Source: a virus (Duplodnaviria > Caudoviricetes). Taken from it: 32,901 nucleotides of DNA. Location of the stretch: IMG/VR virus record IMGVR_UViG_3300020043_005902, positions 1 to 32,901 of that record. One strand, written 5' to 3'. Positions 5,821-32,901 of this stretch are shown piece by piece. Position numbers and translations under genes: made by a program. Positions within the stretch are counted from its first letter, which is position 1; each line of letters opens with the position of its first letter. The notes under the pieces are model-generated. The model made no database searches. It saw nothing but the letters and a program-made list of their open reading frames with translations, and was not told the origin of the DNA.

Positions 5821-7320
5821 CGAATAAAGCGCGCCGTTCTTGGAAATAAGCCCGGCCCGCTGCAATTCGTTCAGGCGTTTGTCCGCTGTGGTTCGTGCGC
5901 AGTTGGCCGCCCGCATGATCCGCTCGTGGAGCATCGAATAAGGCATGGCCCCGCCGTCCCAGTCATCAAAGGCATCTCGGCAAAGTGTGGCCAGCCTGTC
6001 AGCGGCTGAGACCTGGGCGAGTGATTGGACGGCGGTGAAGCCGTCGCCGGTCGACACTGAAATGTGCATCTTCGCTTGGTCGCACCAGCGGAAAACGGGA
6101 GGCTGTTTGATACCTCCATGCCTCGCGTCTTTGGTGGCCAGTGTGATGTGGTCAACGCCTTGCACTTGGTCTTTTTTGAGGAGCAGAATCGTTTCGCTCT
6201 TCTGTTCAAGCATCGTCCCCAGGTGACCTCTCCCTTTGTCGCTTTCCTTGCCTTTCTGTGAGCCGGGGTTGACGTGGAGCGTTGAGACGATTGCGCATCC
6301 GGTTTCCTCACAGATTTCCATAAGGTCGTTGATAAGCCCAGTGGCCTCCCGAACGTCGTTGAAGTCTTGGAGGAGGTCCACCAACCCGTCAACCATCAGC
6401 AAGGCCAGCCCTCCTTCCTTGTGAGCCTTGCGAGCGGCGGAAAGCATGATCTTTCGGCGGTCAGTTGAAGAGAACCGGCGGACGTGAAGGGAGGAGAACC
6501 AAGCCGGGAAGTCCGTCCAGGCGGCACGGCGCAAGGTGCGGACCATCATGGCATAATGGTCCCGCGCGCTTTGTTCGGTGTCGAAATGAATCACCCGCTG
6601 GCCTTCCGGGACGCGGCCTTGAAAGCTGAGAAAATCAGAACCGGCCAAGCCAAACAGGGATGCAATGATTGCGGATTGCGTGGTGGATTTGCCTGACTTC
6701 TGGGGAGCAATGATTGACATGATATTGCCCGGGTGAAGTATTTCGGTGTCCACCAACTTGAGAAGCCAGGGAGCCTCCACCGGCGGCTTGGCCAAGTCAA
6801 AGCGGAGAGCCTCGGCCTTGGCCAGAAGCTTGGCGGCGGACCTCGGCTCGCGCTTCTCCCCCGGCTCAACTGCCGCCCCCAAGTCTGCCAGCGCCTCGGC
6901 TTTGACGGCGATTTCAGCCAGCGTTTGACCGGCCTTGACGGCCTCGACGATGGCAGCAGCAGACTGAGACAGGCGGCGGGCGGTGTAGGCATCCCGAACG
7001 GCTTCCATGTAGGTTCGGGCAAGGGCGGTTGACTCCACCCGGTTGCCGACCCGGTTGACCTCGGCAGGTCCGCCGACAAACTCAAGTTGGCCTTCCTTGT
7101 GGAGTTGCTGGCACAAAAGGATGTCGTCAACGGGTCCGGCAAGTCGAGTGAGCGCGCCAAAGATGGCCGAACATTGCGAGCTGGCGAAGGAAGCCGGGGA
7201 GATGCCGAGTTCAACGGCGCGGGCAACAACGTCGCCGGATTCGTCCAGAATACAGCAAGCAATCAGGGCTTCCTCGGCGTCAACGTTGGCCGGGGAGCCG
7301 CGTGAGGTGGGCAGGGTCAT
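5794..7320 (-). CDS. Replicative helicase: DnaB N-terminal domain fused to an AAA_25/RepA-like ATPase, 508 aa
   Basis: PANVDAEEALIACCILD (DnaB-N); Walker A APQKSGKS; HFDTEQS, MVDGLVDL, LHVNPG, RGHLGT. Start placed at MTLPTS. Confidence 0.8.
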   Translation of the reverse strand: MTLPTSRGSPANVDAEEALIACCILDESGDVVARAVELGISPASFASSQCSAIFGALTRLAGPVDDILLCQQLHKEGQLEFVGGPAEVNRVGNRVESTALARTYMEAVRDAYTARRLSQSAAAIVEAVKAGQTLAEIAVKAEALADLGAAVEPGEKREPRSAAKLLAKAEALRFDLAKPPVEAPWLLKLVDTEILHPGNIMSIIAPQKSGKSTTQSAIIASLFGLAGSDFLSFQGRVPEGQRVIHFDTEQSARDHYAMMVRTLRRAAWTDFPAWFSSLHVRRFSSTDRRKIMLSAARKAHKEGGLALLMVDGLVDLLQDFNDVREATGLINDLMEICEETGCAIVSTLHVNPGSQKGKESDKGRGHLGTMLEQKSETILLLKKDQVQGVDHITLATKDARHGGIKQPPVFRWCDQAKMHISVSTGDGFTAVQSLAQVSAADRLATLCRDAFDDWDGGAMPYSMLHERIMRAANCARTTADKRLNELQRAGLISKNGALYSRVDRQSAQ

Positions 7321-7321
7321 G

Positions 7322-7519
7322 TCAGGTGTCTTGAACGATTTGACGCGGCGTCCCGTCGTTTGAGAAGTGCCAGGCTTCTTCCTCGCCCGCAGAAAATGGA
7401 TAACGGCACAAGTCAGCCATTTCCCTGTCTTCGGCCAACTTGAGAGCATCTTCTAGCGTGTCTGCTTCGACGGTGGTCCAACATGAAACTGTAACCTGCG
7501 CAGATAACTTAAATTTCAT
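7322..7519 (-). CDS. Hypothetical protein, 65 aa
   Basis: Tightly packed ORF; VEADTLEDALKLA motif common in small phage proteins. Confidence 0.6.
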   Translation of the reverse strand: MKFKLSAQVTVSCWTTVEADTLEDALKLAEDREMADLCRYPFSAGEEEAWHFSNDGTPRQIVQDT

Positions 7520-10698: not shown

Positions 10699-11055
10699 TT
10701 AAAAGTTCGGAAATTCTCGCCGGCAGTCGGCCAAGCTGGCCAGAAAAACAGCCCGCCCGCCTGCCCGGTTGACATCGTGAGCCCATTTGATTTGAGCCTC
10801 AGAACGACGCCCGCCCTTGTCGCGTTTCCACTCGACTGAGAGGAACCGGGCGAACTGGCAACCAACCATGTCAGGAGTGATTTCAATCGTCTCCCATCCA
10901 ATGTGGTCGCCACCGCCTCCCCAGTGTGGAATGCCGACAGGAACGGTGTTGCCGCTGGGAAACATGGCGCGCCCGGTATGGTTGCGAAAGACTGCCAGGG
11001 TCGGCAGGTGATTGAGGTATTTGAGCCCCTCGTCTGTTACGGCTGATTCTTTCAT
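10699..11055 (-). CDS. VRR-NUC / PD-(D/E)XK nuclease
   Basis: FRNHTG...GGGDHIG...FLSVEWK...SEAQIKW...AGGRA. Confidence 0.8.
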   Translation of the reverse strand: MKESAVTDEGLKYLNHLPTLAVFRNHTGRAMFPSGNTVPVGIPHWGGGGDHIGWETIEITPDMVGCQFARFLSVEWKRDKGGRRSEAQIKWAHDVNRAGGRAVFLASLADCRREFPNF

Positions 11056-17393: not shown

Positions 17394-17446
17394 TGGCAGG
17401 TTTTTTTGAGGAGTTTTTGAGGCGAAGCGTCGTGCTTCTGAAATAC

Positions 17447-17488
17447 ATCCTGCATGATCCCTTGAATAAGTCAACACCAATTCAAAAG
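17447..17488 (-). promoter_or_regulatory. Early promoter with an overlapping palindromic operator (copy 2)
   Basis: Minus strand CTTTTGAATTGGTGTTGACTTATTCAA; TTGACT, 16 nt, CAGGAT; TTGAA-N14-TTCAA palindrome. Confidence 0.65.
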
Positions 17489-17534
17489 AAAGTTGGTTTA
17501 TTTTTTATCCGCTCACAGTCATCAACTTAGACGC

Positions 17535-17565
17535 AAAAAAGGCCAGCCCCTTTCGAGACTGGCCT
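17535..17565 (-). terminator. Rho-independent terminator closing the tRNA-like RNA
   Basis: AGGCCAGTCTC-GAAA-GGGGCTGGCCT-TTTTT. Confidence 0.8.
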
Positions 17566-17568
17566 AAG

Positions 17569-17639
17569 TTTCGGCGTGTTGCCATAATCACTTCACCGGC
17601 ATGGAGCCAGTGGCCGGTAACGATCCGGCTTCTCCGAAA
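17569..17639 (-). ncRNA. Circularly permuted tRNA-like RNA (open at the anticodon loop, acceptor stem closed by UCCAU)
   Basis: Minus strand: TTTCGG AGAA GCCGG-ATCGTTA-CCGGC CACTGGC T CCA T GCCGGTG AA GTGA-TTATGGCA-ACAC G CCGAAA. All four stems pair. Confidence 0.75.
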
Positions 17640-17793
17640 AAGAACAGAAATTCAAGGCCCAGATTTGCAAGAAGGTGGCCTAATCCTTTGTCGCTTTTCC
17701 GGCCTGCGCAAGCCGTTGGAGCCAATCTTTGCGCCGCTTTTTCTCTGTCGGTTTCCGGAACGCAACAGATACTCATTCGGCGAATCTGCGCAT

Positions 17794-17826
17794 AAAAAAG
17801 ACCTGACCCGTTGCCGAGTCAAGCCT
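17794..17826 (-). terminator. Rho-independent terminator downstream of the late/lysis operon
   Basis: AGGCTTGACTCG-GCAA-CGGGTCAGGTCT-TTTTT. Confidence 0.7.
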
Positions 17827-17974
17827 TTAGCTTTCCCCACCCTATTTGCCGCGCATGAACAGGGCCGGGGAGTTTGGCCGTTTGCGCGGCGGGAAAGTGT
17901 TACGTGGTGCAAATCCAGTCGAATTCAAACTGCAAGTCTTTGGTTATCAACGGCGTTTCCTTGGTGCAAATGAG

Positions 17975-18313
17975 TTATTTCAGCGAAGCCGCCGCTTCTG
18001 CCAGCTTGCCAACAGCAGCGGCTCTGTTGGCTGATTCAGCGGAACCAGCGGCAAGGGCTTCGGGGCTGGCAACCGCTTTGTAGCGAAACAGGAAGTTCGT
18101 CTTTGGGTTGCCGAGAAAAAAGACATCCGTGTCCTTCGGGGAAATGATTTCAAAGCCGTTTTCCGTCTTCCTGATTTCGGTAGTAATGACCTTGGGCGTG
18201 ATGAGCGTGCAACCTGACAGCGACAGAAGAAACGCCAGCGCAAGGCCGGCGACGAGGATCGAGCCGAGAAGCTCGACGGCGACACGTTTTGAAGAGGTCG
18301 GTGGGTATGTCAT
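17975..18313 (-). CDS. Lipoprotein, possibly spanin-like
   Basis: Signal peptide with lipobox LSG-C (AFLLSLSGCTL); last gene of the late operon. Confidence 0.6.
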   Translation of the reverse strand: MTYPPTSSKRVAVELLGSILVAGLALAFLLSLSGCTLITPKVITTEIRKTENGFEIISPKDTDVFFLGNPKTNFLFRYKAVASPEALAAGSAESANRAAAVGKLAEAAASLK

Positions 18314-30496: not shown

Positions 30497-30519
30497 TTAT
30501 TGCAAAGTTTTTGCGTTAA
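30497..30519 (-). promoter_or_regulatory. Conserved late-region motif TTAACGCAAA-N4-TTGCAATAA (copy upstream of the protease gene)
   Basis: 7 nt upstream of the ATG at 30489; same arms as 21924-21946. Confidence 0.55.
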
Positions 30520-31351
30520 GGTCAAGCGGTTTGTTGCAAATCTTTTGCAGGAACCGCCGTCTGCGTGCCGTCAAGCATCGCAAGCGCCTCACTTCCAAGG
30601 TTTTGCAGAATCCAGAGGCGGCGGTATTGGTCATAAGTAATACCCAAACTGTCCGCCCCCTTCTGAAATTCTTCTTCAGGGGTCTGACCGTAAAGGGCAA
30701 AATACTCATCAATGGACATGTTCATCGTCCTGACCTCTTCCAAGATGGCCTTGGTATCCCTGCCAAGGTCAATTGAGAGGTCACGCGGGCGGCGGAAACC
30801 TACGTCCCACCAACCGTCAACGGCCTCGACTCGCTTGGCGTCAATCTCATAGGCCAGCCAATGCAGCATCAGGCGCTGAAGGACAGGCCACAGGATGGCG
30901 TCTTGAATCATTTCAATCCTGACCTTCGCCTTTTCGATAATCGTCCGCTGTTGGGTGCCTTGTGTGCTGCCAAGGAAAACAAAGTCGTATGGCCAGCGCA
31001 CGGCCGAACAAAACTCCCGAACAAAGTTTTCCTTGAACGGGATGAAGTATTGGCCTGGATATTCCGGGCGCATGTTCGTGATTTTGGAGCCAACCGGAAC
31101 ACGCTGCATGGTTACGCCGGTAATTTTTTCAAACCGTTGACCGCCTGGGATGTCGGCAGTCGGAGCGGTCTTGATTCCCAGCGTGGCGTCCTTGGCGCTT
31201 TGAGTAGGGCCGCCGTCCTCATACAGAACGGCGGTTGAGAGTTGCAGTTTGTAGCCAACTTTCGCCAGTGCGTTCAGTTCGGAGACATCAAACAGCGAGT
31301 TAATGGAGGATGTCCAAGACGGACCAACTCGCAACTGTCCAGCCCTGACCG
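30506..31351 (-). repeat. Left arm (846 bp) of a diverged inverted duplication
   Basis: Reverse complement matches 32056-32901 at both ends, has the same length and encodes a colinear protein. Confidence 0.9.
30522..31351 (-). pseudogene. C-terminal ~275 aa of portal 2, variant allele lacking its N-terminus
   Basis: From VRAGQLRV onward it matches 31440-32891 with 24 substitutions plus a different last few residues. The frame is intact, but the first ~25 aa of ORF 30522-31424 are unrelated. Confidence 0.8.
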
Positions 31352-31439: not shown

Positions 31440-32891
31440 ATGTTCCTCAAGATTTTTCCCACCCTTAAATCCTCCTTTCCCTACGTTTTTTGGGGCGGAT
31501 CAACGTCCTTCACCGAGGGCGCGCAGACGAACGAAAACCGCAACAAGTCCGGAGCCGTCGAGCCGCGTTCCGTGATGGAGGAAATTTCCTCCTATTCGCG
31601 ATGGGAGGCTGTGAAGTTCTGCCGCTTCATCGAAAACAACCAGTCCGCTACCGCTGGCATTATTTCCGACATGGTGGATTACTCCGTGCGCACCGGTTTG
31701 ATTCCCGTTTTTCGAGGCGGGGATAAGGCTTGGCGCGCCAAAGTCACCAAGAGTTTCAAAGAGTTTTGTAAATCACCAACCGCCGCCGGAACGAACGACC
31801 TGACAGCCGAGTTAAAGGTCATCGCCCGTGCTGTGTTCCGCGACGGCGAGGTTTTCCCCATGTTCACGGAGAAGCCAGACGGGACGCCATGCCTTCAAAC
31901 GCTTGAAACTCATGTCTTTAAGAATAAGTTCGGCGGAGTTCCTGCCGATGGTTTTATTGACGGCGTTCGTTACAATGAGGCCGGAGAACCGCTTGAATAC
32001 CAGACATTTACAGGCGAGAAGCGACCCGCCTCCGCCATCCTCCACATTTGCGAGCCGGTCAGGGCTGGACAGTTGCGAGTCCCTCCGCCTTGGACCTCCT
32101 CAATCAATAACCAGTTTGATGTCAACGAGTTGAACGCGCTGGCAAAGGTCGGTTATAAACTGCAACTCACCACTCCGGTTCTTTATGAAGACAGTGGACC
32201 GGCTCAAAGCGCCAAGAACAGCACGCTAGGAATCCAAACCGCCCCGACTGCCGACAGCCCCGGCGGTCAACGTTTTGAAAAAGTCACAGGCGTAACCATG
32301 CAGCGTGTTCCAGTTGGTTCCAAGATCACGAACATGCGACCGGAATACCCAGGCCAGTTCTTCATTCCGTTCAAGGAGTCATTCATTCGGGAGCTGTGCG
32401 CTTGCCTCCGCTGGCCCTACGACTTCACGTTCCTTGGCAGCACGCAAGGCACCCAACAGCGGACCATCATTGAAAAGGCTAAGGTCCGCATCGAAATGAT
32501 TCAAGACGCCATCCTCTGGCCTGTTCTTCAACGCCTGATGCTGCATTGGCTGGCCTATGAAATTGAAGCCAAGCGAGTCGAGGCCGTTGACGGATGGTGG
32601 GACGTAGGTTTCCGCCGCCCGCGCGACCTCTCAATTGACCTCGGACGCGACACCAAGGCCATCTTGGAAGAGGTTCGCACGATGAACATGTCCATTGATG
32701 AGTATTTTGCCCTTTACGGTCAGACCCCCGAAGAGGAATTTCAGAAAGGCGCGGACAGTTTGGGCATTACCTATGACCAATACCGCCGTCTTTGGATTCT
32801 GCAAAACCTTGGAAATGAGGCGCTTGCGATGCTTGACGGCACGCAGACGGCGGTTCCTGCAAAAGATTTGCAACAAGCCGATTTACCTTAA
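31440..32891 (+). CDS. Phage portal protein, lambda family (portal 2), 483 aa
   Basis: CRFIENN, FRDGEVF, DGVRYNEAGEPLEY, GQLRVPPPW, RPRDLSIDLGRD. Confidence 0.85.
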   Translation: MFLKIFPTLKSSFPYVFWGGSTSFTEGAQTNENRNKSGAVEPRSVMEEISSYSRWEAVKFCRFIENNQSATAGIISDMVDYSVRTGLIPVFRGGDKAWRAKVTKSFKEFCKSPTAAGTNDLTAELKVIARAVFRDGEVFPMFTEKPDGTPCLQTLETHVFKNKFGGVPADGFIDGVRYNEAGEPLEYQTFTGEKRPASAILHICEPVRAGQLRVPPPWTSSINNQFDVNELNALAKVGYKLQLTTPVLYEDSGPAQSAKNSTLGIQTAPTADSPGGQRFEKVTGVTMQRVPVGSKITNMRPEYPGQFFIPFKESFIRELCACLRWPYDFTFLGSTQGTQQRTIIEKAKVRIEMIQDAILWPVLQRLMLHWLAYEIEAKRVEAVDGWWDVGFRRPRDLSIDLGRDTKAILEEVRTMNMSIDEYFALYGQTPEEEFQKGADSLGITYDQYRRLWILQNLGNEALAMLDGTQTAVPAKDLQQADLP

Positions 32892-32901
32892 CGCAAAAAC
32901 T
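32056..32901 (+). repeat. Right arm (846 bp) of the diverged inverted duplication; ends at the window edge
   Basis: Starts with a 25-bp perfect match to the reverse complement of 31327-31351. Ends CCTTAACGCAAAAACT, the reverse complement of 30506-30521. Confidence 0.9.

Follow-up and report, generated by a model that had tools for sequence, protein, structure and literature searches.

A minimal, probably independently derived, circularly permuted tRNA mimic in the tRNA-gene slot of a phage contig

The IMG/VR record IMGVR_UViG_3300020043_005902 (hereafter the window, meaning the whole stretch of DNA analysed) is a linear contig from a phage, 32,901 bases long and with a CheckV completeness of 42%, which carries portal, head, tail, Sak4, helicase and methylase genes (PHROGs). 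Its minus strand contains a circularly permuted transfer RNA (tRNA) element without an anticodon loop, which is the subject of this work. This element is flanked by the early genes on one side and, on the other, by the final late gene, which encodes a predicted lipoprotein and ends at 17975. The capsid relatives of this phage lie on contigs of 33-41 kb, and among those with a name the best match belongs to a prophage of Verrucomicrobia bacterium IMCC26134; both statements, like all counts from the capsid-relative scan and from the wider-pattern genome scan, apply to the matches listed. We infer that the contig holds most of the phage genome, and the host is probably verrucomicrobial. The features of the locus are the following (nt, nucleotides; bp, base pairs):

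17569..17639, minus strand: circularly permuted tRNA body of 71 nt without an anticodon loop (from structure layout, permuted-tRNA scanner, covariance-type model and ARAGORN)
17634..17639, minus strand: anticodon-stem 3' strand (positions 38-43), whose first Ts overlap the T run of the leader
17630..17633, minus strand: variable loop, 4 nt
17613..17629, minus strand: T arm, 5 bp, with the loop A54 U55 C56 G57 U58, identical in two annotated phage tRNAs
17602..17612, minus strand: acceptor 3' strand (17612-17606), U73 and encoded CCA (17604-17602)
17601, minus strand: linker of 1 nt (U) between the CCA and G1; the presumed RNase P cut lies between 17601 and 17600
17594..17600, minus strand: acceptor 5' strand, identical at 7/7 positions to the tRNA-His of Rhodobacter phage RcXuper
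17575..17593, minus strand: A8, A9, D arm (17591-17576) and G26; U14, U15, G18, G19 and A21 are present
17569..17574, minus strand: anticodon-stem 5' strand (positions 27-32)
17535..17565, minus strand: intrinsic terminator, 11 bp and a T run (z -5.5), with the same outer stem and tail as the terminator of the relative L551
17638..17650, minus strand: 13-nt leader, likely a promoter or start region, also found directly before tRNA-Met in L551
17665..17670, minus strand: -35-like hexamer 17 nt before the leader core, with no canonical -10 after it
17794..17825, minus strand: upstream terminator-like hairpin and T run, the upstream border of the slot, common to L551 (87% over 45 nt)

An earlier note on this DNA, written from the letters alone, had described a permuted order without an anticodon loop on the minus strand, and every segment of it was found in place. 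The terminator that it assigned to the element was also recovered, with 11 pairs and a T run at 17565-17535, beginning within 4 nt of the 5' half. The acceptor stem is made of six Watson-Crick pairs and one wobble (G1-C72, C2-G71, C3-G70, G4.U69, G5-C68, U6-A67 and G7-C66); the T stem is paired at 5/5 positions and the anticodon stem at 6/6, and the D stem has three pairs and an A13.A22 mismatch that had gone unflagged. Altogether, 21 expected pairs are present and none is missing, and the two-piece cloverleaf lies 0.5 kcal/mol from the folding optimum. The tertiary pairs A8:U14 and A54:U58 are both swapped with respect to the usual order. The linker of 1 nt is the shortest of the 18 CCA-type permuted RNAs that we compared, the other 17 having 2-8 nt. 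Just upstream of the leader, at 17683-17654 on the minus strand, there is a degenerate echo of the downstream terminator, including an 8-nt direct repeat of the terminator start; the pairing of this echo with the terminator had no significance.

The element stands out from chance in several ways. The permuted-tRNA scanner scored it at 39, when none of 933 dinucleotide shuffles went above 29. When the window was re-ordered at every CCA and passed to ARAGORN, the only site found was the element, and any match at all appeared in 4/776 shuffles; re-permutation with a dummy loop, which the earlier note had proposed, scored 111 in ARAGORN (threshold 100). Furthermore, a model built from 16 other permuted RNAs, with the window excluded and the filters off, returned the element with 29 bits (E 4.7e-7), the next best site reaching 9.7 bits. 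In its native order the element was blank for ARAGORN (tRNA and tmRNA, transfer-messenger RNA) and for Rfam, and over the whole window Rfam, at the gathering threshold and at E <= 10, gave nothing beyond weak terminator-driven matches. The permuted tRNA is thus confirmed as a real observation, above chance, and we hold its derivation from a tRNA as practically certain. There is a blind spot here, since ARAGORN, Rfam and default-filter model searches all miss the element. Model R2 with default filters was among those that missed it, and R2 blanks in relatives were not counted; relatives were judged by the unfiltered scanner and by model R1, which detects the element of the window. As for sequence support, reads and contigs from four of the ten listed sequencing runs gave zero coverage of the body (17573-17650), and the sequence of the element rests on one contig.

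The genomic position of the element was clarified through its closest relatives. Alignment of the upstream lipoprotein led to two of them in IMG/VR, L551 and L552. The first has 71% identity in that lipoprotein and 81% in the portal protein, and it is syntenic through the late genes. At the slot corresponding to the element, L551 has the same upstream terminator (87% identity over the region 17789-17833), the same 13-nt leader, a tRNA-Met and a tRNA-Trp in tandem, two bases apart, and a homologous terminator. Of the 9-nt leader core, the window has a single copy (0.17 expected) and L551 has two (0.05 expected), both of which lie 2-3 nt before tRNA genes (tRNA-Met and tRNA-Thr). In addition, the tRNA-Thr gene of L551 has a -35-like hexamer 18 nt before the core, compared with 17 nt in the window. 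In L552 there is no tRNA at the corresponding slot. Contigs of the runs X1, X2 and X4 have the terminator in common and diverge in the sequence upstream of it; that of X4 is 97% identical over 17401-17567 and then continues with ten differing letters which resemble an ordinary tRNA 3' end, an identification that, coming from one contig, is suggestive only. In run X1, a sequence resembling another D arm lacks G19; it may be ordinary sequence that follows a stop codon, and it was left out of account. From these comparisons, the element is seen to occupy the tRNA-gene slot of the phage family, a slot whose content turns over quickly. L551 also carries two odd tRNAs (6712-6788 and 7334-7409): a tRNA-Thr with four G.U pairs in the anticodon stem, and a tRNA-Trp with two mismatches at the top of the acceptor.

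Since the leader and the slot are common to tRNA genes of a relative, the element is likely to be transcribed. If transcription began just after the leader core, its first letter would lie near position 39 of the element. The weak promoter that had been proposed at the hexamer TTGCAA was not confirmed: the consensus scan found no promoter-like site, and a canonical -10 is absent.

We looked then for the kin of the element among ordinary and permuted RNAs. The best matches among 50,697 records were two annotated phage tRNAs of normal order, the tRNA-His of Rhodobacter phage RcXuper (OP186293.1), which agrees at 41/51 core positions, and the tRNA-Gly of Aeromonas phage vB_AdhaM_G2 (PQ066597.1), which agrees at 40/51. 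Each was retrieved via one half only; nevertheless, the halves that did not drive the BLAST matches were still identical to the element at 19/25 and 19/26 positions, when 414 other tRNAs used as control gave 11.6 +/- 2.3 (maximum 17) and 10.7 +/- 2.3 (1/414 reaching 19), respectively. Both tRNAs present the same double swap (A8:U14 and A54:U58), the identical T loop, U73, G1 and C2-G71, with an identity of about 80% outside the anticodon stem and the variable loop. Unlike the element, they have an anticodon loop, and their anticodon stems match it at 2-3/10 positions. The earlier note was right that both swaps are present, but they are not special to a mimic, as these annotated tRNAs carry them too.

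The permuted RNAs are more distant. The closest of 26 permuted Y-like RNAs agreed at 28.5/51 core positions, and the D- and T-stem sequences that are near-invariant in that set are not kept in the element. All 16 CCA-type permuted RNAs have U54:A58 and U8, and none of them has A54 or A8. The swaps would have been inherited from a phage tRNA type. Because the element matches ordinary double-swap tRNAs far more closely than permuted RNAs, its permutation is most simply read as an event independent of YrlA. For YrlA itself, an origin from a dimeric tRNA transcript has been proposed, with the T arm from copy one and the D arm from copy two (10.1101/312249). This route fits the element, whose halves pair over their whole length and so point to a single tRNA present in two copies. 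The plain Met-Trp junction of L551 scored 26 bits on the YrlA model, which indicates that a core of this kind can come from tRNA dimers in the slot.

The main rival explanation is that of an inert relic: tandem identical tRNA genes would have lost both outer halves by deletion, leaving a piece that is undecayed and maybe transcribed but without function. In its favor, the element was a singleton in every search, closely spaced tandem tRNAs occur in the slot of L551, and the content of the slot varies among near relatives. Moreover, both junctions lie in short flank matches, one in the T run of the leader and the other in the seven letters before the terminator, which are found in the X2 contig in another context, so that microhomology alone could have placed the breakpoints. 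Against it, both cuts fall at the anticodon loop with all four stems kept, the leader implies a start from which the fold can form, and the same design is present at no fewer than 16 other loci; the thin sampling of the family also weakens the argument from missing homologues. Overall, we consider the relic somewhat unlikely, and we lean only slightly towards the element being under selection.

Another aspect to mention is the relationship with known RNA families. The element resembles YrlA (RF02553) in the order T arm, acceptor, D arm, in the lack of an anticodon loop and in the kept elbow bases. The closest in working mode, through its tRNA-like half, is the YrlA of Mycobacterium smegmatis, which also has a 7-bp acceptor of the kind that RNase P opens. 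The differences lie in the length (110-150 nt in YrlA, 71 nt in the element), in the fully encoded CCA, in the 1-nt linker and in the D and T sequences, which are of phage-tRNA type rather than of YrlA consensus. One criterion used for YrlA is a same-strand Ro60/Rsr gene no more than 4 kb away (PMC4201824). In the window, which offers a flank of 15-17 kb on each side, there was no TROVE match and none with a phage Ro60 query, and a six-frame profile of seven Ro60 proteins reached a best E of 1.7; there was likewise no Ro60 in the two closest relatives and none over the cut-off in 27 capsid-related records. The motif GNCGAAN0-1G was absent from the 60 nt upstream of the element, a weak test, as 1/16 comparison RNAs has the strict motif. 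The nearest strict copy is at 17781-17774, 135 nt away, where the estimated chance of one in 200 nt is ~10%. As judged by Ro60 linkage, motif and model score, the element is not a member of YrlA. This agrees with the earlier note, which had seen no Ro60 gene and no tag frame; the Rfam YrlA and tmRNA models that it proposed to run gave no match to the element.

It could still be argued that we are dealing with a Y RNA after all, in which 17685-17650 and the terminator region would form a Ro60-binding rod, with Ro60 encoded by the host or by the missing part of the genome. The contig is indeed incomplete, YrlA-like RNAs exist in a Prosthecobacter genome, the strict motif is present at 17781-17774, and the rod (-26.7 kcal/mol) lies 2.8 kcal/mol above the terminator fold. 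However, the duplex was matched by 7% of shuffles and by 109/1090 genome windows (10%), the terminator hairpin beat the rod at 7/7 start points, and the motif is remote, with the chance of occurrence given above. In addition, the element had no RF02553 score at E <= 10, compared with 29-56 bits for 7/7 of the first comparison RNAs, and the searches for Ro60 came back empty as described. We regard this explanation as very improbable.

Two-piece tmRNAs (RF04321, RF01850) also have the acceptor piece before the 5' piece, and their acceptor loop is removed by processing. In contrast to them, the element has C3-G70 and U73 instead of G3.U70 and A73, lacks a tag frame and has a full D arm; the wobble, as the earlier note had placed it, is G4.U69. 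The permuted tRNA genes of Cyanidioschyzon merolae, green algae and Thermofilum pendens are alike in that the 3' half precedes the 5' half and the stems are complementary. The algal and archaeal genes, however, retain their anticodon, and splicing at a bulge-helix-bulge turns their transcripts into decoding tRNAs. If the element were a gene of this type, whose ends are ligated into a decoding tRNA, the letters that follow the 5' half could, with a 6-bp stem, pass for part of a Leu(UAG)-type loop. Permuted genes broken at 37/38 have been described, as has one with a 1-nt linker (in T. pendens, with an encoded CCA; PMC3978253), and 17568-17563 fit Y32 U33 UAG G37 with a 6-bp stem, for which chance is about 1 in 16. 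Nevertheless, no bulge-helix-bulge was seen at the ends when the folds were inspected (no dedicated program was used), and with a standard 5-bp stem no flank supplies Y32 U33 N N N R37, the partial loop appearing solely in the non-standard 6-bp reading. Furthermore, the letters 17568-17563 overlap the first arm of the terminator and are found in X2 in a different context, and U73 and the 4-nt variable loop contradict a Leu identity. We give almost no credence to a decoding tRNA.

A cis-acting role was also considered, in which the element would be the core of a phage attachment site (attP) used to integrate into a tRNA gene of the host, or would mark a point where RNase P cuts a read-through transcript and so leaves it with a CCA end. 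Its location at the junction of late and early genes speaks for this, as does a complete 33.6-kb capsid relative (G004) that carries an attP-type tRNA-Lys-like 3' part (L515, about 10731-10860). On the other side, the T arm of the element was found in no tRNA of 401 Verrucomicrobiota genomes, where the ten pattern matches were six tmRNA-like ends and four sequences that are not tRNA-like. There is no integrase among the window proteins scanned, an attP could do without the 5' half that lies downstream, and there is a terminator 155 nt upstream. This role deserves, in our opinion, very little weight. Among 46 window proteins there was no Pfam match to DUF7873, the inclusion of that model in the library being unconfirmed, and Rfam placed no GOLLD RNA around the element.

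The same genomes (5/401) contained 81-nt RNAs in which both ends of the tmRNA model are matched (45-60 bits) and the whole tag region is missing (L577, L578 in two copies, L579, L580, L581 and L584); they also have an A54:U58 T loop, and are possibly tag-less tmRNA heads.

The search for other permuted RNAs, with wider patterns in which positions 8, 14 and 54 could be either base and a T run had to follow downstream, found seven in 36 loci and then at least nine in 163 more. The CCA-bearing ones are:

In phages: L252, L255, L258, L260, L263, L270, L274, L334, L341, L353, L354, L355, L359, L364
In bacterial bins: L390, L447

These 16 RNAs have the same order as the element, a paired 7-bp acceptor, an encoded CCA and no outer halves. 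They differ in their linkers of 2-6 nt, in most of them the flanking sequences form a longer stem with a U run at its end, and most, unlike the element, sit in tRNA arrays of large phages. Ro60 is within 4 kb of 5/16; another three have a Ro60 match in some other part of the record (at 17 kb in one, at 38 kb in the second, unplaced in the third), and the remaining eight are in records without a Ro60 match, three of which are >=90% complete. The first seven scored 29-56 bits on the Rfam YrlA model, under the cut-off of 69 bits. The covariation in alignment A3, with T and acceptor stems 100% paired, is largely circular because the rows were chosen for pairing, and the window is absent from it. 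One candidate, L267, was dropped because it overlaps real tRNAs, and tandem-tRNA junction matches were dropped via their ARAGORN overlap.

Several of the permuted RNAs found deserve mention. Those of L258, L334, L354, L355, L516 and L520 lie in phage tRNA arrays and have a long stem with a CAGCA- or TAGCG-type motif in place of the YrlA motif, with no Ro60 match within 4 kb in the records searched. A 49.6-kb provirus that is 99% complete (G057; L496 / L588) has a permuted RNA with a strict YrlA motif, a CCA and a separate terminator, located between a NusG-like and an SH3-domain gene, with no Ro60 match in the record. In a Prosthecobacter bin (G072, L505) there are tandem YrlA-like RNAs without CCA, so the class exists in Verrucomicrobiota. 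Finally, in a complete 192-kb phage (G053), a 528-aa (amino acid) protein is encoded directly after a CCA-bearing permuted RNA and before an ARPP-1 gene (L589:6964-8547); it had no convincing Pfam match, its Ro60 profile was blank, and it is a candidate partner replacing Ro60.

Taking these data together, the element is real: a permuted tRNA mimic of minimal size, probably of independent derivation, that sits in the tRNA slot of a phage. Regarding its function, the reading that we prefer is that of a free-standing mimic that is transcribed, opened by RNase P and used as a decoy for proteins that read the acceptor end; we assign to this whole chain a probability of about 0.4. A head-to-tail tRNA pair would have left the 3' half of copy 1, the 1-nt spacer and the 5' half of copy 2. 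Transcription from the leader of the slot would start near 17639, where the anticodon stem can close, and run to the terminator. Host RNase P would then cut at G1 (17601/17600) and, after trimming of one U, a two-piece RNA with a free CCA would result. Without an anticodon, such an RNA could not decode, could not be cut in the absent loop and would probably be charged poorly, so its uncharged Gly/Thr-type acceptor arm could persist and soak up toxSAS-like toxins. The opening by RNase P and the target of the decoy are the least certain steps.

Several data from the literature and from the sequence are consistent with this chain. In M. smegmatis, the 7-bp acceptor makes YrlA an RNase P substrate, and the cut RNA gains CCA (PMC4201824). 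According to PMC9976931 (Table 1), the identity set of bacterial tRNA-Gly comprises U73, G1-C72, C2-G71, G3-C70, C35 and C36. The element has the first three, with C-G at 3-70 and no anticodon; we expect it to be weakly charged, since it has part of the Gly identity without G3-C70 or the anticodon. For alphaproteobacterial tRNA-His, a review gives A73 and U72, not U73. The toxin FaRel2 selects G1-C72, C2-G71, G4-C69 and Pu5-Py68, whatever the pair at 3-70, and its substrates include a minihelix that has no anticodon (10.1101/2024.07.05.602228). Three of these four pairs are exact in the element and the fourth is G4.U69, the free CCA depending on the predicted processing; as the FaRel2 determinants are nearly present, a decoy for acceptor-reading toxins is the function that we would favor. 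U73 and G71, a signature of TacT (PMC9976931), are both found in the element as well.

A different working mode would be that of a functional mimic that is never cut, with a closed acceptor loop, which would show the tRNA elbow alone to a host or phage protein. G18, G19, U55 and C56 are all present, the linker is shorter than in 17/17 comparison RNAs, and most YrlA RNAs are thought to keep the acceptor loop closed (10.1101/312249). However, the element keeps an exact 7-bp acceptor, a discriminator and a CCA that would be needless in a closed loop, when several second-copy Y-like RNAs in the same records as the CCA-bearing ones lack CCA, and the near-invariant stem sequences of the Y-like set are lost. 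We find an uncut mimic improbable.

Coming back to the opened decoy, a number of observations weigh against it. Pairs of FaRel2 type occur in 60/426 comparison tRNAs and could simply be inherited. The probability of anticodon stem closure is 0.40-0.44 with a 5' end at 17639-17642 and falls to <=0.02 from 17650 outward, and the consensus promoter scan was empty. The D stem is weak (~0.1), although the two real phage tRNAs give 0.01-0.24. The CCA doubles as 5' leader within a loop of 5 nt, which may hinder RNase P, and the linker of 1 nt may do the same to the cut, though the permuted tRNA of T. pendens mentioned above has one just as short. Moreover, the host of the phage is deduced, and, with such a fast turnover of the slot, a recent neutral relic would look just as intact. 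To this we must add the lack of homologues: patterns based on A54/A8 gave 81 IMG/VR and 76 JGI loci, none permuted, and no homologue was found among 48 capsid-related records (scanner control run), among 51 stretches taken from relatives and prophages, or in L551 and L552. With no homologue, there is no covariation for the element.

Further searches gave similar results. An exact T-arm search in IMG/VR returned nothing, the terminator search found eight loci with the element upstream in none, and the lipoprotein search in genomes yielded 0/461 candidates. Scanner scores of 24-30 among A54-type loci came from coding repeats and were rejected. The D-arm pattern was found at three genomic loci, of which the 25-nt match of L544 is chance-expected, and there is no T arm or CCA upstream. 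It should be noted that the family is thinly sampled, with two loci that have the neighboring lipoprotein gene, and for this reason the missing homologues are weak evidence.

Phages are known to beat tRNA-targeting defences with replacement tRNAs (10.1101/2024.07.05.602228). In the literature we found neither a tRNA decoy without decoding function nor a permuted tRNA without Ro60 described for a phage, most subscription journals lying outside the search. A more ambitious form of the proposal would be a protein-independent, two-piece decoy of 70 nt, with a free Gly/Thr-type CCA, that absorbs toxSAS-type toxins and is invisible to anticodon nucleases, its YrlA-independent origin offering a possible snapshot of the dimer route to Y-like RNAs; taken as a whole, we judge it doubtful. 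If the element is made and opened, it would be about the smallest possible mimic of this kind, and it is directly testable, in vitro transcription being feasible. Should the element be inert, it still documents the route from tRNA dimers that has been suggested for YrlA, in a case where both the ordinary kin and the ordinary-tRNA slot of L551 are known.

Two minor observations concern the rest of the contig. Just before the upstream terminator there is a conserved non-coding motif (17832-17898 on the minus strand; L551 6906-6967, 82% identical), which contigs of run X2 include as well. Its inner helix of 7 bp is perfect, and it also has an outer helix or possibly a pseudoknot; Rfam was blank for the copies in the window and in L551, and none of the 20 genomic loci retrieved with its pattern continued like the motif. 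The window also contains three pieces of the portal gene (30506-31351, 32056-32901 and 45-1958). The two at the contig end form an inverted repeat of 846 bases with 87% identity, 13 kb from the element, which suggests a chimeric join of related phages.

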